DNA of 64,000 bases from a virus (lineage: Duplodnaviria > Caudoviricetes). The notes under the pieces are model-generated. The model worked only from the letters and a program-made list of their open reading frames with translations. It searched no databases and had not been told where the DNA came from. The position numbers were made by a program, and so were the translations under genes. Every line of letters starts with the position of its first letter. Position 1 is the stretch's first letter. Below are positions 27,149 to 43,435 of the stretch, piece by piece. Where the stretch lies: the IMG/VR virus record IMGVR_UViG_3300022555_000043, positions 1 through 64,000 of that record. One strand, written 5' to 3'.

Positions 27149-27175
27149 AAAGGGGGGCTATAAAGCCCCCCCTTT
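27149..27175 (+). terminator. GC-rich stem-loop between SSB and RecA genes
   Basis: AAAGGGGGGCT-ataa-AGCCCCCCCTTT with short T tail. Confidence 0.6.
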
Positions 27176-27181
27176 ATCATT

Positions 27182-28288
27182 ATGAATACCAAACAACTAC
27201 GGAACATAGAGGAGTCATTGATGGCACCAACTGAAGAGGCTAAGAAGCCTTTGTTCTTTACGACAGGTAGCACCTTGCTTGATCTTGTTGTAGGTGGTGG
27301 CGAGAAACTGAATCCTATGCAATTCGGTATGGGTTATCGTGCCGGGGACATTGTACGGGATTGGGGCAATACCTCGTCATCCAAATCATTCAAACTGTGC
27401 GAGGCTATATCGGCCAACCACTACCGCTTCAAGGACAAGTTCAAGTGGGTCTATGACGATCCTGAAGCCGGAAATAAGTTCGATTCCATGAAGCTTTATG
27501 GATTCGATATCATCCCCAAAGACCCCGCCAAGGTTGTCCGTTCTAGGACGGTTGAAGAGTGGTATAACAACCTGAGAGATTTCTGCAACAGTCTTAAAGA
27601 TGATGAGTGCGGAATTTACGGGTTGGATTCACTGGACAGCCTTAGCTCCGACGAAATGGAAGAGCGCAAGGATGAACGCTATGCCATGCACTTGAAAGGC
27701 AAGGAATTCGACGCAGGCTCCTACGGAATGGCTTCCGCCAAGTTCCTGTCCCAAGAATTCTTCCGTGGGTTATCTATTGATCTGGCAAAGAAAAATGTGT
27801 TGCTCTATGTCATCTCTCAGGAGCGCGACAACGTAAATGCTTTTGGTTTCGCCAAGAAGAACAAGTTAGGTGGTGGCCGCGCAGCAACTTTTTACGAGAC
27901 TGTGCGGGTTTACAGTCAGTTGAAGCAGAGAATAGAGGTCAAGGATCGCGCAATCGGTGTCGTGATCAAGGTTGTCGCAGAAAAGACCCGTCACCCTCGT
28001 CCCTTCAGGGAATGCCTGATCCCCATCTTCTTCGAATACGGAGTTGATGACATAGGCCAGAACATTGACTTCCTATACAATCTCCGCACCCCCGAAGGAG
28101 AAATGAAGGACAAGAAAGCAGGAAAGCTACAGTGGGATAACGAGGAGCCAATGGTCAGGGATGTGTTGGTCACATACATTGAACAGAAGAGGCTCAAGGA
28201 AGAACTGCGGAATCGTGCAATCGAAAAGTGGGAGGCTATAGAGGCGGAAATCGCAGTCCAACGCCCTTTCAAGTATGAGGATGCATGA
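27182..28288 (+). CDS. RecA/UvsX-like recombinase
   Basis: TTGSTLLDL..GG, DSLDSL Walker B, ISQ.RDN, GG.A..FY..VR, K...KTRHPRPFR; variant P-loop GNTSSSKS. Confidence 0.9.
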   Translation: MNTKQLRNIEESLMAPTEEAKKPLFFTTGSTLLDLVVGGGEKLNPMQFGMGYRAGDIVRDWGNTSSSKSFKLCEAISANHYRFKDKFKWVYDDPEAGNKFDSMKLYGFDIIPKDPAKVVRSRTVEEWYNNLRDFCNSLKDDECGIYGLDSLDSLSSDEMEERKDERYAMHLKGKEFDAGSYGMASAKFLSQEFFRGLSIDLAKKNVLLYVISQERDNVNAFGFAKKNKLGGGRAATFYETVRVYSQLKQRIEVKDRAIGVVIKVVAEKTRHPRPFRECLIPIFFEYGVDDIGQNIDFLYNLRTPEGEMKDKKAGKLQWDNEEPMVRDVLVTYIEQKRLKEELRNRAIEKWEAIEAEIAVQRPFKYEDA

Positions 28289-28692
28289 TGCGTGTGGCAA
28301 AAGTGCATGCTCCTCCCCCGGCCCCGTACACCATAAAGGAGTACGAGGCCAGCCCGTACTGGAAGAAGAAGTCGGCTACCTTACTGGATGATAAAGCCTG
28401 TACCTGTGAAATGTGTCATAGGAAACGATGGAAACATTTGCCGAGAAAAAATGCATGGAAGAAATTGCGATTCTCGGTTCACCATACGACCTACGACAAC
28501 ATCCCCAACGAACAACCGGGGGATTTGCAGGTGCTGTGTTATGTCTGTCATCATTATAGTCATGTACTATTACAGCTACGGAATATATCCGAGATGTTCG
28601 AAAAGATAGCAAAGATCGTGGAGCAGTATTTCAGGTATGATAAGGACAGTTTCAAACGGCATAATGAAGATGCCAAAAGGAGGCCGAAATGA
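28285..28692 (+). CDS. HNH endonuclease-like protein
   Basis: S.YWK...CEMC...VHH.TY.N...E...DLQVLC..CH. Confidence 0.8.
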   Translation: MMRVAKVHAPPPAPYTIKEYEASPYWKKKSATLLDDKACTCEMCHRKRWKHLPRKNAWKKLRFSVHHTTYDNIPNEQPGDLQVLCYVCHHYSHVLLQLRNISEMFEKIAKIVEQYFRYDKDSFKRHNEDAKRRPK

Positions 28693-28877
28693 TGTTCACC
28701 TTATTCGGGTTTTCAGTATCTCAAGATTGGCGAACCATTGGATTGGATTTCTGTACTATATGTGGTGGAAATTTCTACGGTGGCTTGCTGTATTTTTCGA
28801 AATCAGAGTATGAACTGAACTGGGATTTCCTGTTCTTCCATTCCCTGTATAAACTTGTCAAGGCAAATCAGAGCTAA
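28689..28877 (+). CDS. Small hypothetical protein (62 aa)
   Basis: Coupled ORF; ends WDFLFF. Confidence 0.65.
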   Translation: MMFTLFGFSVSQDWRTIGLDFCTICGGNFYGGLLYFSKSEYELNWDFLFFHSLYKLVKANQS

Positions 28878-28887
28878 GGAGTGATGC

Positions 28888-30099
28888 ATGAGAGTCCCCG
28901 TAACCGGAAAAGTCTTTACCGAAGAAGACAAGCAAGCCCTCATCGACTGTATCAATAGTGGCGAGGAAATAACCTATGGTTCATATAATGTCAAGTTTGA
29001 AAAGATGCTGGCAAAGTATACCGGGGTTTCTCATGCATTCTTTGTGAACTCTGGATCAAGCGCAAATCTATTGGCTTTCGCGGCTTTCACATCCCCCGAC
29101 ATGTACGAGAAATGGCGAGTCCAGCCGGGGGATGAAATCATTACTTTGGCTGCCGGATTCCCTACAACTGTGGCCCCCATTGTCCAGTACGGGTGTGTCC
29201 CCGTATTCGTGGATATTGATCGGGACACGTACAACATAGACATTTCATATTTGGAAGAAGCCAGATCATCCAGAACTAGGGGTGTGTTCATTGCGCACAC
29301 TCTTGGGAACCCCTTTGCCGTAAAGACAGTAAAGGATTTTTGCACTCGTCACAACTTGTTTTTGATCGAAGATGCTTGTGACGCTCTTGGTAGCGAGTAT
29401 GATCATCAGAAGTGTGGCTCCTTCGGAGATGTATCTACCTATTCCTTCTATCCCGCACACCACATCACAACGGGGCAAGGCGGGGCTGTACTGACTTCTG
29501 ACCCACTGATTGCCAAGATTATCCGTTCCATGCGCGGGTGGGGCAAGGAATGCGTGTGCCCACCTAATCAGGATGATGTTTGTGGGCGTCGTTTTACACA
29601 GCAACACGGAAAGTTGCCTTTCGGGTATGACCACAAGTATGTATTCTCTAACTTTGGCTACAACCTTCAGGGTACAAATCTGCTGGCTGCTCTGGGATGT
29701 TCCCAAATGAAGCACATCGAGGAATTCAGTAAGCGCAGGAGAGATAACTTTGAAGTGTTGAAATATGCTCTTCGGAATACCCGGGTCGGTATGATGGAAG
29801 CGTATGCCTCTTCCTATCCTGCGTGGTTTGGCTTCCCAATCCTATTGCCAAATTATCTAATCAGGCGTGACATAGTAAATCAACTATCTGAACGGGGAAT
29901 TGAAACTCGCACATTGTTTGCTGGGAATATAATAAAACAACCTTGCTTTACTAAGAATAGTACAGTGAAATACAGACAGGTGGGGGATTTGTACAACACG
30001 GATTTGGTCATGGATCAAATGTTCTGGACGGGGGTGTGGCATGGACTCAGCCCCGAACAAATAGATTATCTTGCGAAGTCTTTGGTGGAGGTGCTATGA
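28888..30099 (+). CDS. rfbH: CDP-4-keto-6-deoxy-D-glucose 3-dehydratase (E1, RfbH/DdhC family)
   Basis: NSGSSANL, AGFPTTV.P, AHTLGNPF, EDACDALGS, SFYPAHHITTG (His in place of PLP Lys), CxC..C cluster, YDHKY. Confidence 0.93.
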   Translation: MRVPVTGKVFTEEDKQALIDCINSGEEITYGSYNVKFEKMLAKYTGVSHAFFVNSGSSANLLAFAAFTSPDMYEKWRVQPGDEIITLAAGFPTTVAPIVQYGCVPVFVDIDRDTYNIDISYLEEARSSRTRGVFIAHTLGNPFAVKTVKDFCTRHNLFLIEDACDALGSEYDHQKCGSFGDVSTYSFYPAHHITTGQGGAVLTSDPLIAKIIRSMRGWGKECVCPPNQDDVCGRRFTQQHGKLPFGYDHKYVFSNFGYNLQGTNLLAALGCSQMKHIEEFSKRRRDNFEVLKYALRNTRVGMMEAYASSYPAWFGFPILLPNYLIRRDIVNQLSERGIETRTLFAGNIIKQPCFTKNSTVKYRQVGDLYNTDLVMDQMFWTGVWHGLSPEQIDYLAKSLVEVL

Positions 30100-30590
30100 A
30101 CATACCTTCTTCGACATTCGATATAACCCAGTACACCCATTTGCGATACCATGGCAGCTTCATAATCTCAGCTTTCTGCGGTACGGGTAAGACTGACTTC
30201 ACTATCAACCACCCCCATTCCTCAATAGAACGCGAGTGCTGGAAATATCAAACCCCTGACTTCCCTCGTAATTATGTCCGCGCAATAGAAGTTTTTATTG
30301 GGGTCAAACAGTTCATATTTATTAGTACAAACCCCTTATCCCTACACAAGCTAAACACTAAGGGTATCCCTGTACTCATGGTACTGCCTGAATTATCCTT
30401 AAAGGCTGAATACCTCGCACGATTTTTGAGGCGCGGAAGCGATATCAACTTTGTGCAAATGCTGGACAGAAATTGGGAATCGTGGCTCACTGAAGCATAC
30501 AACGAAGAAAATAACCTGCATGTTATTTTGGGTAGTGGAGAATATGTTTCCAATATTCTACATCCTATGACTCTTAGGGGGCTATTATGA
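30096..30590 (+). CDS. Small P-loop NTPase/kinase-like protein
   Basis: IISAFCGTGKT; FPRNY; start moved to ATG 30096. Confidence 0.7.
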   Translation: MNIPSSTFDITQYTHLRYHGSFIISAFCGTGKTDFTINHPHSSIERECWKYQTPDFPRNYVRAIEVFIGVKQFIFISTNPLSLHKLNTKGIPVLMVLPELSLKAEYLARFLRRGSDINFVQMLDRNWESWLTEAYNEENNLHVILGSGEYVSNILHPMTLRGLL

Positions 30591-31582
30591 AACTGCCTAA
30601 TCCGAAATTCTGGGAAGGGAAGCGGGTACTCGTCACTGGTGCTGAAGGCTTCAAAGGCAGGTGGATGGTTCAATGGCTTAGCAAGCTTGGTGCTATAGTT
30701 GAAACCAATGAAACTATAGATATCTGCGATTACGAAGCCATGAAAAACATCATTTTCAAATTCGACCCCGAAATTGTCATCCATATGGCAGCAGTCAGTA
30801 CAGTACAGGAAGCTTTCGAGAATCCTATGGAAGCTATCAGAACCAACGCAATGGGCACAACTACGCTACTGCAAATTCTGAAAATCCACAATATGTGGAG
30901 TAGTGTGAAAGCCATCGTCAATGTAACAACCGATAAAGTATATCATGTTGTTGGGGCAGAACGAGGGTGTGAAGAAACCGATCCTTTGGGCGGTTTGGAA
31001 ATGTATGCTGTAAGCAAAGTCTGTTCCGAACATATCAGCAAGGTGTACCAGAAAACATTTAAGTTACCTATCGTCACTGTCCGGGCTGGAAATGTAATCG
31101 GGGGTGGGGATTTTAAGCGTTCCAGAATAATTCCTAACTACTATTTTGCCCAATTGGAAAACACCCCTCTGGAAATCAATGCCACAGCTATCCGTCCTTG
31201 GCAATACATACTGGATTGCTTATGCGGCTATTTGCTGTTGTGCGAAAAATTATATAATAACGACGCCTATACAGGCGCGTGGAATTTTGCATCCAATGAA
31301 TTCGAAAGCCGTTCTGTAGAATGGATTGTTAAAGAAATGAACAAATATTTTGATCATCCTATAGATATTGCCCGTATCAATTCCAGATTATATTATGAAA
31401 CCAACACTCTTAAATTGAACAGCAGAAAGTCTCACGATGTGTTGCAGTGGACACCCAAATATGATATGCAGGAAATGGTGCGCCGAACGGCAGAGTGGTA
31501 CAGAAATTACATGATGGGGCATAGTGCAGAAGCCTTGAATGAATTCGAAATCAATGCTTATATGAATGAGGGGCAGGAATGA
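30587..31582 (+). CDS. rfbG: CDP-glucose 4,6-dehydratase
   Basis: FWEGKRVLVTG..GFKG.W, TTDKVY, YxxSK, RAGNVIGGGD, RPWQ..LD.L.GY. Confidence 0.93.
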   Translation: MKLPNPKFWEGKRVLVTGAEGFKGRWMVQWLSKLGAIVETNETIDICDYEAMKNIIFKFDPEIVIHMAAVSTVQEAFENPMEAIRTNAMGTTTLLQILKIHNMWSSVKAIVNVTTDKVYHVVGAERGCEETDPLGGLEMYAVSKVCSEHISKVYQKTFKLPIVTVRAGNVIGGGDFKRSRIIPNYYFAQLENTPLEINATAIRPWQYILDCLCGYLLLCEKLYNNDAYTGAWNFASNEFESRSVEWIVKEMNKYFDHPIDIARINSRLYYETNTLKLNSRKSHDVLQWTPKYDMQEMVRRTAEWYRNYMMGHSAEALNEFEINAYMNEGQE

Positions 31583-33363
31583 AAATCGCGGAATACATCG
31601 CCCAAAAACTTCATGAATTAGGGATCACTCAAGTATTCTCCGTTGTTGGTGGGGGAGCGATGCATCTCAATGATGCTTTCGCCAATACTTCGGGGATCAA
31701 TGTCACCTATATGCACCATGAACAGGCATGCTCCATTGCCGCAGAGGGCTATCAGAGAGCCAGTGGCAAGACAGCCTGTGTAGTGGTGACTACAGGCCCG
31801 GGCGGATTGAATACCCTTACGGGGGTTATGGGACAATGGACAGATTCTATCCCAGTCATTTATGTATCGGGACAAGTGAATGAACTTACCACTGTCGAGG
31901 GCACAGGTCGGAGAGAACTGCGCCAACTGGGTGATCAGGAAGTCCATATAATTGATGTAGTCAAACCGTTGACTAAGATGGCTAAAACCTTAGAGAATGA
32001 TAAATATCTTGAATGGAATATTGAGAAGGCATGGTGGTCAGCACATGCTGGGCGACCCGGGCCTGTTTGGTTGAACGTCCCATTAAATGTACAGGGTGCG
32101 GAATTCAAACCTGCCAGTATCCATTATGAACCGCTCCCTCCCAAAGACATGCCGAACGAACATATCGAATTCATTCTTAGTATGATCAACAAAGCAAAAA
32201 GACCATTGATTATAGCGGGGCATGGAATACGGATAGCCAAAGCCTGCGCCGCATTTAAAAGTTTCGCATCCTTTGCAAATATACCTGTCGTTACTACATT
32301 TAATGGATTTGATCTGTTGACATCCAAACATTGGTGCCACATGGGTAACATCACCAACTTAGGTCATCGTGCTGCCAATTTCATATTGCAGAATGCTGAT
32401 GTCATTCTCATTCTTGGAAGCCGAAACAACATTCGGCAAGTCAGTTACAAATGGGAAAACTTCGCTCCCAATGCTATTAAGATGTGCATTGATATAGATA
32501 ATTGGGAATTGCAAAAACCCACCATCCATATACAACATCAATTTCATGCCGATGTGAAATCTTTCTTGACTGGGGCATTAAACCATATGTTCCTGCAACC
32601 TTTAGCCAAACATACAGAATGGTTGGCATGGTGCCAGAAGCTCAAAGAAAAATACCCCATCATGCAAAAGAAGTTTTCCGATGATTCGGATGGGATCAAC
32701 TTGTACACTTTTTTCAATAAAGCTACCAAGAATATAAAACCTCTTACGATTGGGGTGGCAGGAAATGGTAGTGCCTGTGTAGGGTTATTCCAAGCAGGCG
32801 TGGTTACAAATGCATCCCGCTACTTCTGGAATTCTGGTTGTGCTGCAATGGGGTATGCACTTCCTGCAGCAATAGGGGCATCTATAGCAACGAAGCGTCC
32901 TGTGTGGTGTTTCGATGGAGATGGTAGTTTTCAACTCAATATTCAGGAACTCCAAACCATTGTCCAGCATAAACTGAACGTTACCATATTCTATCTCAAT
33001 AATGACGGCTTTTCTTCGATCAAACAAACCCAAGATAATTTCTTTCATAGACGCGCAGGCTGCGATCCTGCTAGTGGGATTACATTTCCTCGTTTGGAAA
33101 GTATTGCCCAAGCTTACGGCATTACGTATATTAAATTGTACAACCATAAAGATGTCGCATATTGGACAAAAATGGACATAAAAGGCCCGATTATCTTTGA
33201 AGTAATGCTCCAAAAGGACTATTCTTTCGAGCCTAAACTAGCACCAAAGATGCTGGAAGATGGTACGATAGTAGCTCCATCATTCGAAAACATGTACCCG
33301 TTTCTTCCCCAAGAAGAAATTGACGCGAATATGATAGGAGGGAAGAATGAAAAACCCGTTTGA
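31579..33363 (+). CDS. Thiamine-diphosphate enzyme (acetolactate-synthase-like / YerE-like)
   Basis: GGGAMHLND, HHEQA, TTGPG, GRPGPVW, GDGSFQLNIQEL..NN. Confidence 0.92.
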   Translation: MKIAEYIAQKLHELGITQVFSVVGGGAMHLNDAFANTSGINVTYMHHEQACSIAAEGYQRASGKTACVVVTTGPGGLNTLTGVMGQWTDSIPVIYVSGQVNELTTVEGTGRRELRQLGDQEVHIIDVVKPLTKMAKTLENDKYLEWNIEKAWWSAHAGRPGPVWLNVPLNVQGAEFKPASIHYEPLPPKDMPNEHIEFILSMINKAKRPLIIAGHGIRIAKACAAFKSFASFANIPVVTTFNGFDLLTSKHWCHMGNITNLGHRAANFILQNADVILILGSRNNIRQVSYKWENFAPNAIKMCIDIDNWELQKPTIHIQHQFHADVKSFLTGALNHMFLQPLAKHTEWLAWCQKLKEKYPIMQKKFSDDSDGINLYTFFNKATKNIKPLTIGVAGNGSACVGLFQAGVVTNASRYFWNSGCAAMGYALPAAIGASIATKRPVWCFDGDGSFQLNIQELQTIVQHKLNVTIFYLNNDGFSSIKQTQDNFFHRRAGCDPASGITFPRLESIAQAYGITYIKLYNHKDVAYWTKMDIKGPIIFEVMLQKDYSFEPKLAPKMLEDGTIVAPSFENMYPFLPQEEIDANMIGGKNEKPV

Positions 33364-34435
33364 AAACCTCTTTGTGTTGGAAATGGCAAACAACCATCTT
33401 GGTAGTGTAGAACGAGGACTGGCTATCATCAATCAATTCGCCCCCATCATTCACTACAACAATGTCAAAGCCGCCATCAAACTTCAATTCAGGGATGTAG
33501 ATCATTTCGTTCATGAAAAATTCAAGGGTAACAAAGATATTCGATACATCAAGAAAACGGAAGATACCCGACTCACCACAGCAGAATACGGTACTTTGGT
33601 ACAGGCTATTCGAAGGGTCGGGGCAATCCCTATGGCAACCCCATTTGATGAAAATTCCGTTGATCTGTGCGTGTCTTTGGGAATGGATATCATCAAGATC
33701 GCCAGTTCCGATATCAACGACTGGTTCCTGCTCAAGAAAATAGCTTCAACACGGTTACCTGTTATAGTGTCTACGGGTGGAGCTTCGGAAAAAGACCTTG
33801 ATGCGATAGTAGATTTCTTCGATAACCGTAGCATTCCCATTGCCATCAACCACTGCGTTTCGCTCTATCCTTCGGAAGATTGGGAATTGGACTTGGATCA
33901 GATCGACTATCTCAAACAGCGGCATCCCGGGCATGTTATTGGCCTATCCACCCATGAATACCATGATTGGGCGGCTTCCATGTTGATTTCCTATGCCAAG
34001 GGTGCCCGTACATGGGAACGGCATGTTGACATTATTACCGATGATGTCACACCCTCTCCCTATTGTTCCATGCCTGCGCAGATAGATGTATGGTTCAAGG
34101 CTTTCCATAAAGCTAGGGAAATGTGTGGTGGGAAAAATATATCCCGGCGTTTCATCCCACAAAAGGAAACGAAGTATCTGGATGCTTTAGTTCGTGGTGT
34201 TTACGCGAAACGGGACTTGGAACCCGGATATGAATTCTCCAATGAAAAAATGACCGATGATTTCTACTTGGCAATTCCCTTGCTGAAAGGTCAGCTTTCC
34301 TGTAGGGAGTTGGTCAATAATGAAGTCTTAGTCAATCCTATCAAAGCCAATGAACCCCTCATGCTTGGACATGTGGGGGGTGTGTATCGAGACAACGAGC
34401 AACTTAGGGCACTAATAATGCAAAGGGGACTCTAA
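33347..34435 (+). CDS. NeuB/SpsE-family PEP-dependent ulosonic acid synthase
   Basis: EMANNH.G, KLQ, TPFDE.SVD, KIAS.D, STGG, HCVS.YP, GLSTHE, ERH, C-terminal RGVYAKRD. Confidence 0.9.
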   Translation: MKNPFENLFVLEMANNHLGSVERGLAIINQFAPIIHYNNVKAAIKLQFRDVDHFVHEKFKGNKDIRYIKKTEDTRLTTAEYGTLVQAIRRVGAIPMATPFDENSVDLCVSLGMDIIKIASSDINDWFLLKKIASTRLPVIVSTGGASEKDLDAIVDFFDNRSIPIAINHCVSLYPSEDWELDLDQIDYLKQRHPGHVIGLSTHEYHDWAASMLISYAKGARTWERHVDIITDDVTPSPYCSMPAQIDVWFKAFHKAREMCGGKNISRRFIPQKETKYLDALVRGVYAKRDLEPGYEFSNEKMTDDFYLAIPLLKGQLSCRELVNNEVLVNPIKANEPLMLGHVGGVYRDNEQLRALIMQRGL

Positions 34436-35106
34436 TGCGGACACTTATTCTTGGTGGAACAGGAGACATCGGCAGTAGTATTTGTTCTAAACTCGAAACC
34501 TTTCTTGGTGCGGATATCCAAGCCGTAGGCAGCGCAGATTTTCGCCTACAGGAGCCTTCAGAGATAGAAAGCTTTTTCAATAAAAACGGCAACGATTTCG
34601 ACACCATTATTCATGCAGCAGGCTATAACAAGGTGCTTCCCATTGAAGATATCGATTATTTTGAATTCCAGTATTCTTGGGAAGCCAACGTACTCGGATT
34701 CTTGCAGACTGTACAAAAATGCCTCCCCTACTGGAAACAACGCAAACATGGACGCATTATAGTTATCGGTTCTTTATATAGCGAGATTGCGCGAAAGAAC
34801 CGCTTACCTTATGTCATGGCGAAGCATTCATTATTCGGGGCTGTACAGGAACTGGCTTTGGAATTGGCCCCTTATGGGGTAACAGTTAATATGGTATCCC
34901 CGGGATATATTGACACTGGACTGACACGCCAGAATAACGATCCCGAAACCTTAGCGGATATTATCTCTCGCATCCCTTTAAAGCGACTGGGAACCCCGGA
35001 AGATATTGCCGAAGTAGTTGCTTTTCTAGCCTACAATGGATATTATATCACAGGACAGAATATCGTTGTAGACGGTGGCTATTCAGCCGGGGGTTTCCAG
35101 AAATGA
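34435..35106 (+). CDS. Short-chain dehydrogenase/reductase
   Basis: GGTGDIG, HAAG, YxxxK, VNMVSPG, P.KRLG.PE, G..I.VDGG. Confidence 0.92.
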   Translation: MRTLILGGTGDIGSSICSKLETFLGADIQAVGSADFRLQEPSEIESFFNKNGNDFDTIIHAAGYNKVLPIEDIDYFEFQYSWEANVLGFLQTVQKCLPYWKQRKHGRIIVIGSLYSEIARKNRLPYVMAKHSLFGAVQELALELAPYGVTVNMVSPGYIDTGLTRQNNDPETLADIISRIPLKRLGTPEDIAEVVAFLAYNGYYITGQNIVVDGGYSAGGFQK

Positions 35107-36248
35107 CGTTTCAAGTGGATGATGTAGAGTTCCCGGTAGACCATGATTGCCTCAGTCCCATTGCATCCATTCCAAAAGAATACAAGGTGCAAATACTCCC
35201 TATTCAAAACATGATTCCGCGAATTACTACAGACATAATTTCTCGCGCCCACCCCGTCATTCTGGTTGATTCTTTCATCTACGATAGATATAATACCTTA
35301 CTACCTTTCGATAAAATCCCCACGTTCCTTATAGAATCAAAGGAACAGAATAAAAATCTCGATTCGGTGTTGGACATCATGCATTTCTTCAATAAACATA
35401 AGGTGACCAAGGGATCAACTGTATACGTCATTGGCGGGGGTATCACTCAAGACCTTGGAGCATTTGCATGTGCTATTTACAAACGAGGTATTCCGTGGGT
35501 GTTTGTACCCACCACCTTGCTTTCCCAAACAGACAGTTGCATTGGTGGCAAAACAGCCCTCAATATTGGGGCTAACAAAAATCTACTGGGCCTGTTTTCC
35601 GCCCCTTCAGAAGTGATTATCTGCCCATATTTTTTAGACACACTACCTATGAATGCCATATACTCAGGTTTAGGAGAAGCTTTCCGACTGAGTATTACGG
35701 GAGGATATGAACTTTTTAAAATGTTTGACCGACACGCCAGATATGTGATAAAAGAAACTGATTTTGTTGCTCTGGAACGCATTATTTCATATGCATTATC
35801 TGTCAAGAAATCCATCATTGAATATGACGAATTTGAAACAAACGTTCGTAAAGTAATGAATTACGGGCACACAATCGGTCATGCTCTGGAAGCCGCAACT
35901 CGATATGAAATTCCCCACGGTATTGCTGTGACAATAGGCATTATGGTAGAAACAGAATTGAGTACCAGATTAAAACAGTGCCCTTCTAATCATCAAGACA
36001 TGATCATTGAACTGGGTTGTGCCCTCGTTCCCGAACAAAAAACGAACATGTTACGAACTATTACAGCGGATATGCTGGTTCCGTTTATTCTCCAAGACAA
36101 AAAAGCTGTCGGAAGTATTATCAAAATGCCTATGTTTTATGGATTCGGAGAAATGCATATTGATGATGTAGAATTTAATGAGGCCACAATGATTGAATTA
36201 CGCCAAGCATGGAATTATGTTTTGTGCCGTTTAGGAGTGCCGGAATGA
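35103..36248 (+). CDS. 3-dehydroquinate-synthase-like sugar phosphate cyclase
   Basis: IGGGITQDLGAF, PTTLLSQ.DS.IGGKT, NYGHTIGHALE, PHG.AV. Confidence 0.9.
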   Translation: MTFQVDDVEFPVDHDCLSPIASIPKEYKVQILPIQNMIPRITTDIISRAHPVILVDSFIYDRYNTLLPFDKIPTFLIESKEQNKNLDSVLDIMHFFNKHKVTKGSTVYVIGGGITQDLGAFACAIYKRGIPWVFVPTTLLSQTDSCIGGKTALNIGANKNLLGLFSAPSEVIICPYFLDTLPMNAIYSGLGEAFRLSITGGYELFKMFDRHARYVIKETDFVALERIISYALSVKKSIIEYDEFETNVRKVMNYGHTIGHALEAATRYEIPHGIAVTIGIMVETELSTRLKQCPSNHQDMIIELGCALVPEQKTNMLRTITADMLVPFILQDKKAVGSIIKMPMFYGFGEMHIDDVEFNEATMIELRQAWNYVLCRLGVPE

Positions 36249-37474
36249 ATGTATTATTGTTGGATTTGGGCGCTAGTAGAATCAAAGCCTGCTTGTATTC
36301 CGCACATAAAGAAGAAATACACATGTCTTGCGAATTTGAGACTCCTCAACCTATGTACCTTCCTAAAGGTAAAGTCGAGGTAGACCCTTATGCATACATC
36401 CCTATTTTAAATGCTATTATAGAACAGGCACAACCATTTGGCATAGATCGAATGTGGTTGTGTTCCGAAATGCACGGAGTAATTCTTTTGGATGGCGACA
36501 ACCATCCCATTACCAACTACATCAGTTGGAAAGATTCTCGTGGTTCCACTAAAGGAATCGACGCATCCATATTTAAAAACATAACTGGAATGACCGTACA
36601 TCAAGGATTACCAATTCTCACAATAAGGTATATGTGCAAACATAAACAGCTACCCGAAACATTCCGTATGTGTTCTTTAATTGACTGGTTGTTGATTGAA
36701 TATGGTAATGATGTAGCTGCAGCAAATGCTACTATGCTATTAGGCACAGGATTGTACGGGCTACACTCACAGGCGTATGCCCCATATCTATTCCACATGA
36801 TGGGCATTAAATGTAGTCAGATCAAATCCTCTCCCATAGTCCCTCTTGGCACTCGTCTAGGATTGATTCGCGGAATTCCTGTTTATGGTGGTATAGGAGA
36901 TTTGCAAGCCGCAATTGCTGGATCAGTGCAAATAAATCATAACATCCTTATTAACTTGGGAACAGGATCGCAAATCATAACGCCTCAGCAGATAGGCTCT
37001 CCTTTTACGGAACTTCGCCTTGGTGCGAGAAATGAATGTTTTTCCGCAATCACGCACATTCCTTGTGGAAGAGCATTAAATGTTTTCGCTAAGTTCATAG
37101 GGGAAGAATTATTTTGGAAATGTATGCCTGACTTGGAACCGAAGAATATTTTAGCCGCTAGTATAGGAGTAGGTTTGGATGTTGGTTCTGGGCAGGGTGT
37201 CATATATCATATCAAGGAAGGAGAATTTAATCTCAATAATCTCATGCATGGTATTGCATTAAGTTGGCTAAAGCAATATACTGATCGAATAGAGACAGTT
37301 GACCCCTTGTGTCAATGCCCAACTATATATGTGGCAGGAGGTCTAAGCCGCAAATTACCATTTGTGGTTCCTGTGTTGGAAGCATTAACGAATAGGCAGG
37401 TTGGTTTAGTGCGCCCAATGACTGGCGAAGAAACCCTTGATGGTCTGCTGTTTTTGGCAAAGGAGAATATGTGA
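36245..37474 (+). CDS. FGGY-family carbohydrate kinase (sedoheptulokinase-like)
   Basis: LDLGASRIK, EMHG, ISWKD.RG, GIGDLQAA, INLGTGSQI, AGG. Confidence 0.8.
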   Translation: MNVLLLDLGASRIKACLYSAHKEEIHMSCEFETPQPMYLPKGKVEVDPYAYIPILNAIIEQAQPFGIDRMWLCSEMHGVILLDGDNHPITNYISWKDSRGSTKGIDASIFKNITGMTVHQGLPILTIRYMCKHKQLPETFRMCSLIDWLLIEYGNDVAAANATMLLGTGLYGLHSQAYAPYLFHMMGIKCSQIKSSPIVPLGTRLGLIRGIPVYGGIGDLQAAIAGSVQINHNILINLGTGSQIITPQQIGSPFTELRLGARNECFSAITHIPCGRALNVFAKFIGEELFWKCMPDLEPKNILAASIGVGLDVGSGQGVIYHIKEGEFNLNNLMHGIALSWLKQYTDRIETVDPLCQCPTIYVAGGLSRKLPFVVPVLEALTNRQVGLVRPMTGEETLDGLLFLAKENM

Positions 37475-38124
37475 ATTACCGATTGTATATCAAAACTATG
37501 TTTTCCGTCATCAAAGCATACGGTGTAAACATTCCGATAATGGATAAAGCAGGAGTAGGATATGGGCATTTGGAAGCCATAACCTATGACTACAAATATA
37601 GTCGCCCGTGGCTACCAAAATTGCTGGGCGATTGGAGAAGGGCAAACCCTTCATTATCAGCCAGTCAATTCGAAATCACCGAAGCCAACACGACAGCATG
37701 GTTGGATAAACTTGTACTGTTCCGACCTGACCGAATCCTGTTCATGATCATTGATAATGAAGGAAACCAGATAGGGCATATAGGATACTCCTCATTTGAT
37801 TTCGAACATGGAACTGCCGAAATAGATTGTGTTCTAAGGGGTCAGAAAACCCCATATCCTATGATGACGTATGCACTGGACTGTTTAATAAAATATGGAT
37901 ATGATAAACTAAAATTGAGGATCATCAATCTTTCGACAATGGCAGACAATACAAAATCTACACAACTCTACCAACGATGCGGTTTCAAAATCATGAGGGA
38001 CATCCCTTTATTCAAGCACACACTTCCGACAGGGGAGATTCGTTGGGACGAAGACCTTACAAAAAATTCAAGCGAAACAGATAAATGGGGTGTATACATG
38101 TGCCATATTAAGGAGTCAACATGA
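37471..38124 (+). CDS. GNAT (RimJ/RimL-like) N-acetyltransferase
   Basis: QIGHIG, AEID.VLRG, N.KS..LYQRCGF; GTG start coupled to upstream stop. Confidence 0.8.
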   Translation: MNYRLYIKTMFSVIKAYGVNIPIMDKAGVGYGHLEAITYDYKYSRPWLPKLLGDWRRANPSLSASQFEITEANTTAWLDKLVLFRPDRILFMIIDNEGNQIGHIGYSSFDFEHGTAEIDCVLRGQKTPYPMMTYALDCLIKYGYDKLKLRIINLSTMADNTKSTQLYQRCGFKIMRDIPLFKHTLPTGEIRWDEDLTKNSSETDKWGVYMCHIKEST

Positions 38125-39233
38125 ACAAGAAGATCAGTTTTGCAGGCCCATGGATTACCGACAAAGAGATAGACTTCGTACTGGAAGCTGCCCGGGACGG
38201 GCATTACGAAATCTTCGACAAGTACATCAAGAATTTCGAAGCGGAAGCCCGAAAGTATTTTGGTGTCAAGTATGCCATAGGCACCCACTGCGCAACACAT
38301 GCCCTGCATCTTGCCTGTGCCGCTATTGGATTGAAGAAGGGCGATGAAGTGATTGTCACCGATCACAGTTGGTCGGCCACAGCCTTTGCCGTCACCTATA
38401 CGGGTGCTACCTGCATCTTTGTGGATATTGATCCTGTCACACTGTGTATCTCCCCTGACGCTATCGAAGCGGCAATTACTCCCCAAACCAAAGCTATCAT
38501 GATGGTACACAATTTCGGAGTTCCTGCAGATATGGTGGAAATCATGTCTATTGCACAGAAATACAACCTTCGTGTCATCGAAGATGCCGCGCCCGCATTA
38601 GGTTCCTTGTACTACGGTCAAAAATGCGGAACCATTGGAGATGTCGGCTGCATCAGTTTCCAAGGAGCGAAAATAGCGATCAGCCAAGAAGGTGGCCTGC
38701 TCATCACCAATAATAAGGAAATCTATGATCGTGCATTGCTTCTTTCTTCTATGGGACGCACAGACAGCGAAGCCCCTTTCTGGTGCGATGAAGTAGGATT
38801 TCAGTATACCATTGGGAGCCTTCCTTCCGCTATGGCAACCATCCAGTTACAGCGGATTGACGAATTGATTGACAACAAACGCAAAATCTATTCGTGGTAC
38901 AAAGCTCGTTTGGAAGATAGCATATATTGCCATATGGTGCATGAAAAACCGGGAACCTTTGCCAACTACACGTATCCTTCCATCTGGCTGTATGATCATG
39001 TCGGAAAATCCAATACGCGAATCATTGCCGAATTGAAAACCCTGAATGTCCATTGCAGGCCGGGATTCCCCCCTATGAGCCGCTTCCCAATGTACAAAGA
39101 CGATCAGCGGTTTGAAAACCCCGTAGCCTACAAATTCTGGAAACGTGGAATTGTGCTTCCTGCAGCGCACAACCTTGTCAGGGAAGACATTGATTTTGTC
39201 TGTGATAACCTTAACCGTATTGTAAGGGGGTGA
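38121..39233 (+). CDS. DegT/DnrJ/EryC1/StrS sugar aminotransferase (perosamine-synthase-like)
   Basis: ALHLA, GDEVI, IEDAA.ALG, SFQGAK PLP lysine, EGG, RPGFPP. Confidence 0.93.
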   Translation: MNKKISFAGPWITDKEIDFVLEAARDGHYEIFDKYIKNFEAEARKYFGVKYAIGTHCATHALHLACAAIGLKKGDEVIVTDHSWSATAFAVTYTGATCIFVDIDPVTLCISPDAIEAAITPQTKAIMMVHNFGVPADMVEIMSIAQKYNLRVIEDAAPALGSLYYGQKCGTIGDVGCISFQGAKIAISQEGGLLITNNKEIYDRALLLSSMGRTDSEAPFWCDEVGFQYTIGSLPSAMATIQLQRIDELIDNKRKIYSWYKARLEDSIYCHMVHEKPGTFANYTYPSIWLYDHVGKSNTRIIAELKTLNVHCRPGFPPMSRFPMYKDDQRFENPVAYKFWKRGIVLPAAHNLVREDIDFVCDNLNRIVRG

Positions 39234-39234
39234 T

Positions 39235-39951
39235 ATGACCTACAACTTCCGCATCTACATCTCATTTGCCAGAAATATGGAACTGCTGAACAAATGCATT
39301 GATTCCGTAGTTCCCCAAATAAGGGAATTTTCTACATGGAAAGGTAAGAAAATCGTAGTGATCAATGATTCCGGGGAAGACATCCGTGGACAATGCCACT
39401 TTCCCGATGAAGTTGAAATCTACGAAATGCCCTATCGAATCAAACTCAGTCCCGCCATTATGGGAGATTGGGTTGTAAAGGATGCCTTCTACACCAATCA
39501 GCCGTTCGCCATGACCCTACATACCGATGCCGAACTGTTGCCCGGAGCAATGAAGGATATCCTCGATAAAGCCAAGGAGATAGAAGGAACCAAATGGGGA
39601 ATGCTCTTCGGTGGTGCTGGATGGCAAGTATTCGCCCTTTATAACCCACGCTTCTTTGTGGATGAAAATGTCTGGCATGATCCCTATCTCTTCCCTTTCT
39701 ACTATCAGGATAACCACCTCTACAGGATCATGACCCTGAGAGGGTGGTATGTAACACAATCTGATTCAAAAATCCCCACTATTATCCACAAAAGTAGCCA
39801 TTATCTCAAAGAAGACCCTATCTTTAAACGCAAAAATGATATAGCATTCCCAGCACATGGTTGGATTTACGCACAGATTTGGGGAGGCTTGCCCGGGTAT
39901 GAAACATCTGTCGATCCCTACGCAGCGGGCACGTTGCCGAAAAAGGTCTGA
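39235..39951 (+). CDS. GT-A fold (GT2-like) glycosyltransferase
   Basis: VVINDS, HTD, YYQDN, WGG.PG.E motifs. Confidence 0.7.
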   Translation: MTYNFRIYISFARNMELLNKCIDSVVPQIREFSTWKGKKIVVINDSGEDIRGQCHFPDEVEIYEMPYRIKLSPAIMGDWVVKDAFYTNQPFAMTLHTDAELLPGAMKDILDKAKEIEGTKWGMLFGGAGWQVFALYNPRFFVDENVWHDPYLFPFYYQDNHLYRIMTLRGWYVTQSDSKIPTIIHKSSHYLKEDPIFKRKNDIAFPAHGWIYAQIWGGLPGYETSVDPYAAGTLPKKV

Positions 39952-39954
39952 CAC

Positions 39955-40743
39955 ATGATCTGCGAATGTTTCTACTTCTGGAACGAACTCGACCTCTTGG
40001 ATGCCAAACTTCACGAACATAGTGGAGTAGTGGATCGGTTCGTCCTATTGGAATTCCCAACATCCTTACGGCATATCCCACAACGTCTGCAATATGAGGA
40101 GAACAAAGAAAGATTCAAAGAATTTCAAGACAAGATATTCCATATCGTAGGCCCAAACGATCATCCAGAATTGTACGGGCTGAATTTATTGTTCGCCAGA
40201 CATAAGAATTATCTCACTGGATTGGCAGATTGCGCTCCCAATGACATCATCATCCTATCTTCTCCTGATGTGATATGGAAAGCCTCTACGCTGGAACAAT
40301 TGAAAACAATAGACATGGAAAATTCCAGTGTTCAATTCGTTGCCGATTGGTATAGTTACTACATGGATTTTTTCTGCACCGAAATTAAATATGATTTTGA
40401 TGGGGCTTGTCTATACAAACATCTGAAATACCACAATTCAAACAATCGCCCCCTCATTCCTGTAGGAACCAGAATTACCGATGCGGGATGACATTTCTCC
40501 CATCTTGGTGGTGTGGATAAAATACTTGCTAATCTTCATGGGCACCCACACACGGAAATGGATAATGAGATAACCCGAGACAGGGCTACTATGATCATGA
40601 AAATGGGACAAGGATTTGCTTGGGGAGCGAGTGGGGGATATAGAAAGGTAATGCAGTATGTACCTCGCAACCCACAAAACTATCCCGCTTACATCAACGA
40701 CCATCCCGAAATCTTCGGAAAATATTTCAGGAACAAGGAGTAG
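39955..40743 (+). pseudogene. GT17-like (beta-1,4-GlcNAc transferase family) glycosyltransferase with one in-frame TGA at 40489-40491 (nonsense allele or readthrough)
   Basis: CF.FWNELDLL..LHE..VVD.FV..E, DIIILS..D; DAG*HFSHLGG where homologues read GWHFS. Confidence 0.8.
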
Positions 40744-40746
40744 ACA

Positions 40747-42126
40747 ATGAAGACTAAGGTTCTGTGCTGGCTTGATTCTCCCACCTGTGCAACAGGTTTC
40801 GGACAGGTCGCCAACAATGTCCTGAAGCGACTTTATGCCACGGGACTGTATGAATTCGACATCATAGGGATCAACCATGCGGGCGATCCTTACGACACCA
40901 CTCAGTACCCCTATCGCATCTTTCCCGCAGTTGCCCCTCTTTCTGGGGATGACAAGATGCGCACGGATGTGTATGGATTCCAAAAGATGCTGTTGTTCGC
41001 TGGTATGGGGCGCTACGATATCGTGTTCATCCTCAATGACACCTTCGTCATCAACGCTATTATAAAACCCCTTCTTGAAGCACAACAGAAGATGCCCAAG
41101 GACAAGAAATTCGAAATCATCACGTACTTCCCTGTCGATTCTCCTCTCAAGAAAGAATGGGTAGACAACGTGGTATCTTCCATTTCATTCCCGGTCACTT
41201 ACACCAACTACGCTTTCAAGGAATGCCTCAAACACGACCCCGGACTCAGCAAGAACCTCAAAGTCGTTTACCATGGAGTAGACAAAAACATTTTCTTCCC
41301 CATAGGAGAACCTGCCAAATTGAAGAGGGAAATCCTTGGGCCAGATCACTGCCAGAAATACGTTGTTCTCAATGTAAACCGCAACCAGCCCAGAAAAGAC
41401 CTGCACAGGACATTTGCAGGCTTCAAGATTTTCCATGAAAAGTACCCCAACACCCTACTGTTCATTCTGGCACAATCGCAGGATGTGGGAGGCGATCTGA
41501 TGGAAATTGCCAAGAGTTATGGCTTGGTTTGGGACAAAGATTGGGTTTGTCCTGCCCCGGGAAGCTATGGTGCCAACCAAGGCTATCCTATTGCAGTAGT
41601 CAATAAAATCTACAATGCTGCCGATGTCGTCATTTCCAGCACTCTGGGCGAAGGATGGGGACTGAGTATTTCCGAAGCCTTCGCTACCATCAAACCCGCT
41701 ATTTTCCCCGACAACACCAGCCTCCATGAAATCATTGGGGAAAATTCGGAACGTGGTTGGTTCATCAAATCCGGGGAAGACCTCGACCATTTCACCTGCC
41801 TTGGATCGGCTGACAACAACCAAGTTCGCCCAACCATCAACGTCTTCTCTCTGGCCGATCAACTGGAATATGTATACACCCATCCTGAAGAAGCGCAGGC
41901 CAAAGCAGAGAGGGCGTATAGTGAAGTATGGGTTTGGGATGACCTGTGCAAGACTTGGGCCGAAATATTCGCTCAAGCCAGCAAGAAAGTAGTTACCATG
42001 CGCTCGGACATCAAAGTTGAACGCAACGCCCCGTGTCCTTGTGGTTCGGGCGAGAAGTGGAAGCATTGCTGCGGAGCTTCCTACGTACGATCTGCCACTG
42101 GGGAACTCAAAAAGATTGTAGATTAG
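40747..42126 (+). CDS. GT-B (GT4-like) glycosyltransferase with C-terminal SEC-C motif
   Basis: DSP..ATGF..V, YHGVD, NRNQPRK, YNAADV, GEGWGL...EA; tail [17 protein letters not shown]. Confidence 0.9.
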
Positions 42127-42127
42127 C

Positions 42128-42187
42128 TTGACTCAAATCAGAACATATGATATATTAAAGGCAGGTCGCAAGGCTTGCCTTTAATAT
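42128..42187 (+). promoter_or_regulatory. Promoter TTGACT-17-TATATT overlapped by a 16-bp hairpin with GCAA loop
   Basis: ATATTAAAGGCAGGTC-GCAA-GGCTTGCCTTTAATAT at 42152-42187. Confidence 0.75.
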
Positions 42188-42199
42188 CTAGGAGCTAAG

Positions 42200-43435
42200 A
42201 TGCTTAAAACCGTCGATATACAGAACTTCCAGAGCCACAAAAACACCCATCTGGATTTAACAAACGGTGTAAATAGCATCATTGGAATTTCGAACCACGG
42301 GAAAACATCCATACTCAGGGCGATCAACTGGGTCATTACCAATCGTCCTTCGGGGGAAGCTTTCGTATCCAACTTCGTGCGCGATGAAAAAGGCAACCAG
42401 AAAGAAGACTGCATTGTTACCTTGACCACCGATACTCATGTTGTATCCAGAGTGCGCGGTGCCAAGCGAAACCTCTACATCTTGGATGGCAAAGAATTGG
42501 AAGCCATAGGAATGGCCGTTCCCCAAGAAATACAGGATGCTCTCAATTTCTCCACCGTGAACATCCAAGCCCAAATGGAAATGCCCTTCCTCTTAGCAAG
42601 CACTGCCGGAGAGGTCGCTCAGTTCTTCAATCGAATCGTCCACCTCGACACAATAGACACCTATCTTTCCGATATTGAAAGTAAGAAGCGGGCAACAAAA
42701 AGTGAGTTGGAATTAGCCCGCACCAATTTAAAAAGCACTGAAGATGATCTAGCCAAATATGATTGGGTAGATCGTGCGCAAGAACTTATGGCAAAACTCA
42801 AAGATGCCAAAGAACGATCCACGGCTCTCTTCGCGCAATACGAACAACTGCGCCAATCCATCAAAGCATATCAGGAATACGCTGAAATCATTGAACAGTC
42901 TTCTGTGGTTGACAAAGCCATAACCATACTGGAACATGTAAAAGATTGCAAAACTCGACAGCAAACCTATCTCCAAGAATACCACATCCTTCACGATTCC
43001 ATTTCCTCATACAAAGAATTCGATAAGTTCCTACAATCCATTCAATTCATAGACAAGGCTGTACTCCTGTTGGGATCATTAGAAACCTTACAGAAAAGAC
43101 GGGATGCTTTACGAACCACCGCAAATAATCTAGCCTCTCTTATGAATGATTTCATTCGCAACCAGAAAGACATTGAATCTGCCTCATGTGTGACATATGC
43201 CGAAAAACTGATCAAAAAAATCAGTGGTTTGCAAGCCAATAAGGTAGGATTAAAGCTAATGCACAGTAATCTGTGGGCATCCATTGAAGAATACAAACTC
43301 TACCAACAAACATTGGATGCTTTCGAAGGAGAATTCGCTGTATTGAAATCACAACTTCCTGCAACATGCCCTTCTTGTGGGCAACCCCTATCAGCAGACT
43401 ATCTCGCGGAACATGTAGGAGCTTCTCATGGATAA
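42200..43435 (+). CDS. SbcC/Rad50/gp46-like ATPase, N-terminal half (Walker A to Zn hook)
   Basis: NFQSH, GISNHGKTS, Q-loop NIQ.Q, coiled coil, terminal CPSCGQ. Confidence 0.9.
   Translation: MLKTVDIQNFQSHKNTHLDLTNGVNSIIGISNHGKTSILRAINWVITNRPSGEAFVSNFVRDEKGNQKEDCIVTLTTDTHVVSRVRGAKRNLYILDGKELEAIGMAVPQEIQDALNFSTVNIQAQMEMPFLLASTAGEVAQFFNRIVHLDTIDTYLSDIESKKRATKSELELARTNLKSTEDDLAKYDWVDRAQELMAKLKDAKERSTALFAQYEQLRQSIKAYQEYAEIIEQSSVVDKAITILEHVKDCKTRQQTYLQEYHILHDSISSYKEFDKFLQSIQFIDKAVLLLGSLETLQKRRDALRTTANNLASLMNDFIRNQKDIESASCVTYAEKLIKKISGLQANKVGLKLMHSNLWASIEEYKLYQQTLDAFEGEFAVLKSQLPATCPSCGQPLSADYLAEHVGASHG

Follow-up and report, generated by a model that had tools for sequence, protein, structure and literature searches.

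A phage-borne gene cassette with a predicted ThDP-dependent pathway to a C4-branched 3,6-dideoxyhexose in a freshwater tailed phage

The stretch of DNA analysed here (64,000 nucleotides; hereafter the window) is the first 64 kb of the 75,397-bp IMG/VR virus record IMGVR_UViG_3300022555_000043, a tailed-phage genome that ends in direct terminal repeats and is rated complete. At window positions 28888-42126 the genome carries a 13.2-kb island (17.5% of its length) consisting of 13 co-directional plus-strand genes, g1 to g13, inserted among genes for replication and recombination. Judged from its protein families, this cassette is most likely a phage-borne variant of a known branched-deoxysugar pathway that depends on thiamine diphosphate (ThDP), equipped with an uncharacterised side-chain module and with glycosyltransferases (GTs) of its own. 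With somewhat better than even probability, the cassette is a phage-owned operon that both makes a C4-branched 3,6-dideoxyhexose and transfers it to an acceptor. The genes are as follows, with assignments predicted from the matches given in brackets.

28888-30099, plus strand: g1, RfbH/DdhC-type CDP-4-keto-6-deoxyglucose 3-dehydrase, E1 (NF011936)
30096-30590, plus strand: g2, predicted small phage-type P-loop kinase, 164 aa (Walker A AFCGTGKT; phrog_4182)
30587-31582, plus strand: g3, CDP-glucose 4,6-dehydratase, RfbG/DdhB-like (TIGR02622)
31579-33363, plus strand: g4, predicted YerE-like ThDP-dependent carboligase (ThDP N, M and C domains, Pfam)
33347-34435, plus strand: g5, NeuB-family 3-deoxy-2-ulosonate synthase dependent on phosphoenolpyruvate (PEP) (Pfam NeuB, 5e-35)
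34435-35106, plus strand: g6, classical short-chain dehydrogenase/reductase (SDR) (Pfam adh_short_C2, 1.5e-39)
35103-36248, plus strand: g7, AroB-related sugar-phosphate phospholyase/cyclase (TIGR04425, 295 bits)
36245-37474, plus strand: g8, FGGY-family sugar kinase (Pfam FGGY_N, 1e-13)
37471-38124, plus strand: g9, GNAT N-acyltransferase (Pfam Acetyltransf_3; weak PseH match)
38121-39233, plus strand: g10, DegT/LegC/PseC-like aminotransferase dependent on pyridoxal phosphate (PLP) (Pfam DegT, 2e-91)
39235-39951, plus strand: g11, phage-type GT-A (GT2-like) glycosyltransferase (Atlas comparison only)
39955-40743, plus strand: g12, GT17-like glycosyltransferase (Pfam GT17), with an in-frame TGA at 40489-40491
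40747-42126, plus strand: g13, GT4 (GT-B, retaining type) glycosyltransferase with a C-terminal SEC-C zinc motif (Pfam; phrog_2170)

RESULTS

Keto-sugar genes and their partners

g1 lies well above the equivalog cut-off for RfbH (NF011936, 551.4 bits versus 423). Its motif FYPAHH places a His where g10 has the PLP-binding Lys (SFQGAK), and it carries a Cys-rich stretch, CVCPPNQDDVC; we take the replacement of Lys by His, together with the Cys motif, to be the marks of a 3-dehydrase E1 that works with pyridoxamine phosphate and a [2Fe-2S] cluster. g3 falls just under the cut-off of its best model (TIGR02622, 276.8 bits against 278.45), while the next model, that of dTDP-glucose dehydratase, reaches 120 bits. 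Both proteins are accordingly predicted to act on CDP-glucose.

Two partners of these enzymes are missing. No NTP_transferase, NTP_transf_3 or CTP_transf_3 domain was found in the whole 75.4-kb genome; hence a nucleotidyltransferase of the RfbF/NeuA type is absent and, since the genome has no cytidylyltransferase, the phage would depend on CDP-glucose made by the host. Likewise, the genome encodes no Fer2 or LdpA-like protein that might be the reductase partner of E1 (E3/RfbI type), so that this reductase, too, would have to come from the host. In two sister phages, L181 and L182, which are described below, an LdpA-like Fe-S protein (Fer4 plus LdpA_C) follows the rfbH/rfbG region (L181, 3242-4210; L182, 18225-19166), and this protein is a candidate substitute for the E3 reductase of the 3-dehydrase.

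A predicted YerE-like carboligase and its side-chain module

In the biosynthesis of yersiniose, erwiniose and caryophyllose, a YerE-like ThDP enzyme joins an aldolase-made α-keto acid to CDP-4-keto-3,6-dideoxyglucose (PMC9306805), after which an SDR reduces the product and a GT transfers it (PMC9306805, Steitz et al.). g4 contains all three domains of ThDP enzymes, with the motif GDG...NN at residue 447, and its closest solved relative is JanthE (8RPH; E 1.9e-100), which it matches with 340 bits as against 230 bits for acetolactate synthase (AHAS). JanthE is a characterised YerE-like enzyme that couples α-keto acids to ketones (PMC12188165). On these similarities g4 is predicted to be a YerE-like carboligase, nearer to JanthE than to AHAS. 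The ThDP enzyme, the reductase and the glycosyltransferase that the published scheme needs are thus found in a single cluster (g4, g6, g11 and g13). The 13 cassette proteins include no member of an aldolase family, the pyruvate aldolase of the scheme not being present.

In its place stand a NeuB-like protein, an SDR, an AroB-like protein and a kinase. g5 scores far under the equivalog cut-offs of PseI (103 bits versus 340) and NeuB (100 bits versus 400) and is 63-69% identical to its homologues in the bacterial and IMG/VR modules described below. A pathway to sialic, pseudaminic or legionaminic acid was considered and rejected: the synthase is below these cut-offs, and no CMP-transferase (CTP_transf_3) was found in the genome. 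The homologue of g6 always adjoins the AroB-like gene in related loci, and g6 may have a YerF-like role. g7 is below the cut-offs of both of its models (TIGR04425, 295 bits versus 400; aroB TIGR01357, 263.5 bits versus 305). When aligned to solved 3-dehydroquinate synthases (DHQS) and 20 family members, it keeps the DHQS motif positions K235, R249, N253, H256, H260 and H272; only in the E-x-x-K motif is the Lys exchanged for Arg. A true shikimate 3-dehydroquinate synthase (AroB) was rejected as an identity for g7, the score being below the cut-off and no other shikimate genes being present. The kinase g8 is called at 409 aa in independent contigs. A search of the literature found no paper linking caryophyllose with dehydroquinate synthase.

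Glycosyltransferases

The cassette ends in three transferase genes. g11 has no Pfam match, no tblastn match in deposited phages and no sequence match to solved structures; its nearest Atlas clusters are viral and GT2-like, with a TM of about 0.8. g13 gave an AF2 model with a pLDDT of 91, the best PDB match of which is the chlorovirus NY2A glycosyltransferase 3OY2, followed by MshA, BshA and PimA. It belongs to a family with 1190 homologues, whose cultured carriers are phages of actinobacteria and cyanobacteria. In three cultured phages the homologue lies within the head-gene module or next to it: in Microcystis phage Mae-JY09 it is flanked by the genes for the major capsid protein and the adaptor, in S-CBS4 by those for portal and protease, where it adjoins a second GT and a methyltransferase, and in TJE1 it stands just upstream of the terminase genes.

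g12 is interrupted. Up to its stop the gene spans 39955-40491, codon 179 being TGA with C as the next base, and the frame then stays open for 84 further codons, to 40743. The Pfam GT17 match spans the stop, rising from 49.8 to 54.7 bits when the gene is read through, and the read-through protein is 52% identical to, and colinear with, an intact 263-aa gene of sister phage L181 (56% in the part after the stop), which has Tyr at the position of the TGA codon. The TGA is present in every assembly seen, these assemblies being nearly clonal. Since TGA is the commonest ordinary stop of the genome (42 of 77), there is no general recoding; a recent knockout or low-level readthrough of g12 is possible. 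The gene identities proposed for the cassette by an earlier reading, made from the nucleotide sequence alone, were largely recovered for the 13 genes by Pfam, TIGR and PHROG comparisons. It was in the transferases that they needed qualification, g11 being GT2-like by Atlas comparison only and the GT17-like gene being interrupted.

Accessory genes

The Atlas clusters nearest to g2 are viral and named 'nucleotide kinase family', and homologues occur in T5-like phages; g2 is absent from sister phage L181 and gave no meaningful match among solved structures. g9 has no homologue in the 20-kb stretches around related bacterial and phage modules. g10 matches the LegC-family model with 266 bits and keeps the catalytic Lys (SFQGAK).

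The cassette is an integral part of the phage genome

The minus strand of the genome encodes a portal, large terminase (TerL), protease, major head protein, a tape measure of 1824 aa and, to judge from a weak DUF2001 match under the cut-off, possibly a tail-tube protein. On the plus strand lie a primase, an SNF2 helicase, DnaB, a fusion of PolA with a UDG-like domain, a deoxynucleoside monophosphate (dNMP) kinase, UvsY, gp32, RecA, HNH, SbcC and SbcD. The cassette is inserted into this series, with UvsY, gp32, RecA and HNH upstream and SbcC and SbcD downstream; ten of its 12 gene junctions overlap by 1-17 nt and the other two have gaps of 1-3 nt. The immediate flanks are as follows.

27182-28288, plus strand: RecA/UvsX-like recombinase, upstream flank (Pfam RecA)
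28285-28692, plus strand: HNH endonuclease, upstream flank (PHROG HNH)
42200-43435, plus strand: SbcC-like ATPase, downstream flank (Pfam AAA_23, SMC_N)
43428-44315, plus strand: SbcD-like nuclease, downstream flank (Pfam Metallophos)

The sequence-only reading had described 13 co-directional, tightly packed genes between RecA/HNH and SbcCD; all 13 were found where it had placed them, and Pfam and PHROG matches bear out the flanking genes on both sides. It had also raised the question of whether the joins at 28.8 and 42.1 kb might betray an assembly chimera in which an rfb locus of the host is fused to phage DNA. Six contigs (L005 and L091-L095) are 99.98-100% identical to the window, and each crosses the left or the right border of the island; the same stretch was seen in freshwater or lake metagenomes from three studies (2016, 2017 and 2020). 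In two runs, single contigs without any difference span the whole of 26000-45000, and small contigs from two other runs bridge 28532-29175, 28740-29727 and 41565-42539, both borders being crossed in the independent 2016 study (28532-29175 and 41565-42539). No alternative joints were found over 26000-45000, and read depth is even there. A chimera would, moreover, have to account for identical junctions in eight further assemblies and for a sister phage that carries a cassette at the same site. Nothing was found in its favour, the GC content of the island being only mildly lower (0.41-0.46) than that of the flanks (0.44-0.50). As independent contigs bridge both borders, depth is even and alternative joints are lacking, the probability of a chimeric host rfb locus is close to nil: the cassette is truly phage-borne and an integral region of the phage genome.

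Sister phages exchange the putative side-chain genes

Two sister phages were located through g13. On the 61.9-kb contig L181 the order is HNH, RfbH, RfbG, epimerase, LdpA-like Fe-S protein, HAD, HpcH/HpaI aldolase and ThDP enzyme, followed by a transferase end made up of a g11 homologue, the intact 263-aa GT17, an RmlC-like protein, a 241-aa protein and GT4-SEC-C, with SbcC and SbcD behind it. The genes shared with the window phage stand in the same order and are 63% (RfbH), 63% (RfbG), 56% (g11), 52% (GT17) and 65% (GT4-SEC-C) identical to their counterparts, whereas the ThDP enzyme is only 38% identical to g4. Where the window phage has the NeuB, SDR, AroB-like and FGGY genes, L181 has a HAD protein, an HpcH/HpaI aldolase and the divergent ThDP enzyme. 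L182 shares the backbone of polymerase, RecA, GT4-SEC-C and SbcCD, and its sugar genes encode RfbH, RfbG, an LdpA-like protein, HAD, an HMGL-type aldolase and an HpaI aldolase. By this comparison of sequences, the keto-sugar genes and the transferases are conserved, and the genes assigned to the donor acid, together with the ThDP enzyme that would use it, are swapped as a unit. That the sisters would use the published aldolase route supports a role of the NeuB, kinase, AroB-like and SDR genes in making the side chain.

Distribution of the module

A scan of IMG/VR with an alignment as query (a single-protein query gave no match) recovered 156 stretches that encode a relative of the AroB-like protein, of which 80 loci were kept. 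ThDP enzyme, NeuB, SDR and AroB-like protein occur together in at least 32 of these 80. Three loci that were inspected are clearly phage DNA: in L089 and L179 the module, accompanied by RfbG/H-like genes and GTs, is found next to RecA and ribonucleotide reductase (RNR), L089 having PhoH, MazG and dCMP deaminase in addition and L179 DnaB and primase, and L180 carries the module beside a DnaB-type helicase. L179 (an IMG/VR contig; 92-127 kb) and L089, which are unrelated freshwater phages, show a variant gene order (NeuB, ThDP enzyme, SDR, AroB-like protein and a 315-335-aa protein; L179 3051-15598, L089 1232-14350) and also carry GT11, GT17, GT34 or GT2 genes.

Bacteria have the module as well. 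In a locus from a bacterial metagenome-assembled genome (L002), the ThDP, NeuB, SDR, AroB-like and FGGY genes lie beside rfbF, rfbG, rfbH, GT2, GtrA, GT87 and acyltransferase_3, with 39-68% identity. Of 80 bacterial loci, 12 have the five-gene core; they come from Gammaproteobacteria, Alphaproteobacteria, Elusimicrobia, spirochaetes and other groups. In six of the 12, RfbH and RfbG are also present within the fetched stretch. The best bacterial identities, 43-69%, are scattered over many phyla. Within 20-kb stretches around the bacterial modules no homologues of g2, g9 or g11-g13 were found.

Among deposited phage genomes, megablast with the cassette gave no match, and tblastn with the ThDP and AroB-like proteins gave only ilvB/aroB-like matches of about 30% identity, mostly in records contaminated with host DNA. 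The huge phage LR756502 was examined as a carrier of the module and rejected: it has RfbH-like and GT17-like genes and lacks the ThDP, NeuB and AroB-like ones. We found no paper describing a phage-borne pathway of the YerE type. The module is frequent both among uncultivated phages of fresh water and among bacteria from many phyla. Islands of several sugar genes are themselves nothing new for tailed phages, as cyanophages already carry them, and the earlier view that single GTs or gtrABC genes are what tailed phages usually have is too narrow, both because of the cyanomyovirus islands of 15-22 sugar and GT genes (PMC12801897) and because at least 32 of the 80 loci kept from IMG/VR hold the module.

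Other features of the genome

Promoter-like and terminator-like sites occur in 26000-45500 at chance frequency. The best terminator-like site upstream of the transcription unit of RecA, HNH and the cassette is a strong GC-rich hairpin with a T-rich tail at 27152-27171, directly 3′ of the gp32-like gene; a promoter-like site (42128-42156) follows the last cassette gene. The HNH endonuclease gene (28285-28692, plus strand) lies directly upstream of the sugar cassette, and a GIY-YIG homing endonuclease (47335-48267, minus strand) lies beside tail genes, adjoining a gene similar to DNA-repair exonucleases. Such mobile nucleases may have helped the exchange of modules.

Also beside the tail genes, minus-strand open reading frame (ORF) 45441-46505 encodes a 354-aa protein of no assigned function and contains at 46060-46358 a tandem repeat of 84 bp (28 codons; 3.6 copies, 97% matches). 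At this repeat the variant contig L091 (75,197 bp) can be placed on the window in two alignments that overlap, which suggests that it differs in copy number. In the replication region, the family A DNA polymerase (21262-23841) has an N-terminal UDG-like domain, and the same PolA-UDG fusion is found in sister phage L182. Directly after the polymerase gene, at 23842-24759, a dNMP-kinase domain is fused to DUF4406 (nucleoside deoxyribosyltransferase-like).

DISCUSSION

The proposed pathway

The cassette likely encodes a ThDP-dependent pathway to an acyl-branched 3,6-dideoxyhexose, because g1 is above the RfbH cut-off and bears the His and Cys marks, the best model for g3 is a CDP-glucose dehydratase and g4 is closest to JanthE. 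Assigned from family membership, its steps may be pictured as follows. The host would supply CDP-glucose, which g3 and g1, with a host reductase for E1, would convert into CDP-4-keto-3,6-dideoxyglucose. For the side chain, g8 would phosphorylate a precursor, g5 would condense the phosphorylated precursor with PEP, g7 would remove the phosphate by DHQS-type chemistry to leave a terminal deoxy group or a carbocycle, and g6 would reduce a keto group, the four enzymes together yielding a functionalised 3-deoxy-2-keto acid. g4 would decarboxylate that acid and join the remainder to C4 of the keto-sugar. g10 and g9 might then aminate and N-acylate a remaining keto group or, alternatively, divert part of the 4-keto intermediate to a second, 4-acetamido sugar. 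Finally, the soluble transferases g11 and g13, and possibly g12, would attach the product to its acceptor.

NeuB-type enzymes form a 3-deoxy-2-keto acid from PEP and an aldose, that is, an acid of the γ-hydroxy α-keto type taken by YerE-like enzymes. The NeuB-like protein, the kinase and the AroB-like protein thus apparently stand in for the aldolase of the published scheme. No phosphatase is present, nor is one needed, which fits phosphate elimination by g7. The suggestion that the phage builds a rare-sugar glycan of its own can be kept as regards a rare-sugar pathway with its own transferases; its description as a 'complex glycan' was too vague, for the cassette fits the scheme of PMC9306805.

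Several observations do not sit easily with this pathway. The set of deoxy-keto-sugar genes of the published scheme is incomplete here: RfbG and RfbH are present, whereas the genome encodes neither RfbF nor the E1 reductase, so that the pathway would work only in a host that makes CDP-glucose. There is only one classical SDR, though two keto reductions might be needed. Furthermore, as g7 keeps all of the DHQS motif positions, it may close a ring in its substrate and so yield a compound without the α-keto acid function, which would require another order of steps.

A quite different kind of product was also considered, namely a small molecule that diffuses freely, such as a pseudo-sugar or an aminocyclitol like those of acarbose and validamycin, instead of a glycan on a macromolecule. 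A cyclase, a kinase, an SDR, a 4,6-dehydratase, a DegT aminotransferase and GTs do loosely resemble the gene sets for C7N-aminocyclitols. However, g7 is much nearer to true DHQS (E 5e-40) than to ValA-type cyclase (1.5e-23) or DOI synthase (6e-25), RfbH, the ThDP enzyme and NeuB are foreign to aminocyclitol pathways, and in bacteria the module is tied to polysaccharide loci. A small-molecule product is accordingly very improbable, and the branched deoxysugar is retained as the predicted product.

The acceptor of the sugar

Which molecule would receive the sugar is less clear, and virion proteins are put forward tentatively as the leading candidate. They are favoured, if indirectly, because the GTs belong to phage-wide families whose homologues in cultured phages are located in head and tail modules. 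In the 20-kb stretches around the bacterial modules no homologue of the GTs was found, the clusters nearest to g2 and g11 are viral, and in structure g13 is best matched by a GT from a chlorovirus. That the g13 family extends over phages whose hosts have different envelopes also fits an acceptor borne by the phage. On the other side of the balance, the cassette is placed in the early operon for replication, away from the structural genes, the g13 homologue of S-EIVl stands beside a primase, and no obvious Ser/Thr-rich tails were seen on the capsid, tail-tube or fibre-like proteins. To these readings must be added a smaller chance that the acceptor is some other molecule or is not assignable.

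The sugar might instead be added during infection to an envelope glycan of the host (O-antigen, capsule, S-layer or flagellin), with the phage GTs working on protein or lipid-linked acceptors of the host and the host exporting the product; this would mask receptors and block superinfection or the loss of progeny on cell debris. The homology of the sugar core to modules in bacterial surface-polysaccharide loci, with their GT2, GtrA, GT87 and acyltransferase_3 genes, agrees with such a role, as does the interpretation of cyanophage sugar islands in the literature (PMC12801897), and the need for CDP-glucose from the host points to one in which CDP-sugars are made in any case. The phage, however, has no initiating transferase, flippase, polymerase, ligase or GtrA/B-type protein, and, the tape measure excepted, no protein of the genome has four or more hydrophobic segments. 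Pfam profiles and the hydrophobic-segment scan thus extend to the whole 75.4-kb genome what the sequence-only reading had said of the cassette, namely that flippase, O-antigen polymerase and nucleotidyltransferase are lacking. Its view that this favours a cytoplasmic acceptor is less secure: export genes are indeed absent, but this is weak evidence, as soluble GTs could act on lipid-linked intermediates of the host. The phage-wide families of the GTs, with cultured homologues in head and tail modules, are a better guide, though still an indirect one. The three GTs are also without homologues in the fetched stretches around bacterial modules; the g13 family spans actinobacterial and cyanobacterial phages and the g11 clusters are viral, a spread that fits a phage-borne acceptor better. 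Modification of the host envelope is therefore possible and, on balance, unlikely. Serotype conversion of the gtrABC type was rejected, as the genome encodes no polytopic membrane protein and its annotated genes include no integrase.

That the cassette is located between RecA and SbcCD, within the operon for replication and recombination, raises the further possibility that the glycan is placed on phage DNA as a hypermodification against restriction and CRISPR. The dNMP kinase fused to DUF4406 adjoins the polymerase, and unrelated phages with the module carry it in similar places, beside RecA, DnaB or RNR. Known DNA-glycosylating clusters typically centre, though, on a thymidylate-synthase homologue, TET/JBP (5mYOX) or a C5-methyltransferase (bioRxiv 10.1101/2023.12.21.572611; PMC13326640). 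Searches of the complete genome for these three (PF00303, PF12851 and PF00145), in each of which the positive controls matched, found none of them; nor was a T4 DNA glucosyltransferase among the top 49 PDB fold matches listed for g13 (repeat chains of listed entries omitted). The weakness of the case for DNA glycosylation, noted earlier for the window, thereby extends to the whole genome: with no enzyme for a hydroxylated base, DNA is an improbable acceptor, and virion proteins remain the candidate that we prefer.

Implications

One may speculate, though with considerable doubt, that a freshwater siphovirus lineage coats its virions (less likely its DNA) with a 3,6-dideoxy sugar that is long-branched or bears a carbocycle, and that it swaps the side-chain module while keeping the transferases. 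If so, the exchange of the NeuB, kinase and AroB-like genes for the aldolase route would be the phage counterpart of serotype switching in O-antigens, and the AroB-like enzyme would perform a DHQS-type reaction in the synthesis of a sugar side chain, which has never been characterised. Tailed phages would then go beyond borrowing the nucleotide sugars of their hosts and would possess entire tailoring routes to sugars that are among the rarest in bacteria. This would provide a model, open to testing, of how glycans make phage particles or the surfaces of infected cells vary in nature, as well as compact, soluble and membrane-free enzyme sets (YerE-like carboligase, NeuB-like synthase and an AroB-like enzyme from an uncharacterised family) for studies of the synthesis of C-branched sugars.

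Comparison with known systems

Phage systems that glycosylate DNA (T4, glucosyl-5hmC; RB69, arabinosyl-5hoC; MT/5mYOX/GT clusters) share with the cassette the presence of soluble phage GTs alongside replication genes, and differ from it in having an enzyme for a hydroxylated base, which the whole genome described here lacks. The glycosylation of mycobacteriophage virions (Freeman et al. 2023 as cited in PMC12619734) likewise involves soluble phage GTs without export genes. Those mycobacteriophages use nucleotide sugars of the host and make no rare sugar. The genes of the cassette, for their part, lie in a replication operon. The islands of the T4-like cyanophages S-H68, S-SCSM2R and P-SSM2 are also large, co-directional clusters of nucleotide-sugar and multiple GT genes, with an RfbH homologue of 34% identity; host contamination aside, no homologue of the ThDP, NeuB-like or AroB-like proteins was found in deposited phage genomes.

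The closest parallels are bacterial. The module of ThDP, NeuB, SDR, AroB-like (TIGR04425) and FGGY genes that lies by rfbFGH in bacteria has the same gene set as the cassette and the same order from NeuB through SDR and AroB-like to FGGY; in the bacterial loci it is accompanied by RfbF and membrane-associated polysaccharide genes, which the cassette does not have. In comparison with the clusters for acyl-branched sugars (YerE/YerF; ErwE/F/I/J; MMAR_2331-2333; PMC9306805), the cassette replaces the pyruvate aldolase by a PEP synthase of the NeuB type, a kinase of the FGGY family and an AroB-like protein; it has DegT and GNAT tailoring genes in addition, lacks RfbF as well as the E1 reductase, and is carried by a phage. 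The RfbG/RfbH chemistry, the YerE-like carboligase, the SDR and the GT are common to both, and sister phage L181 even has the HpaI-type aldolase of that scheme.

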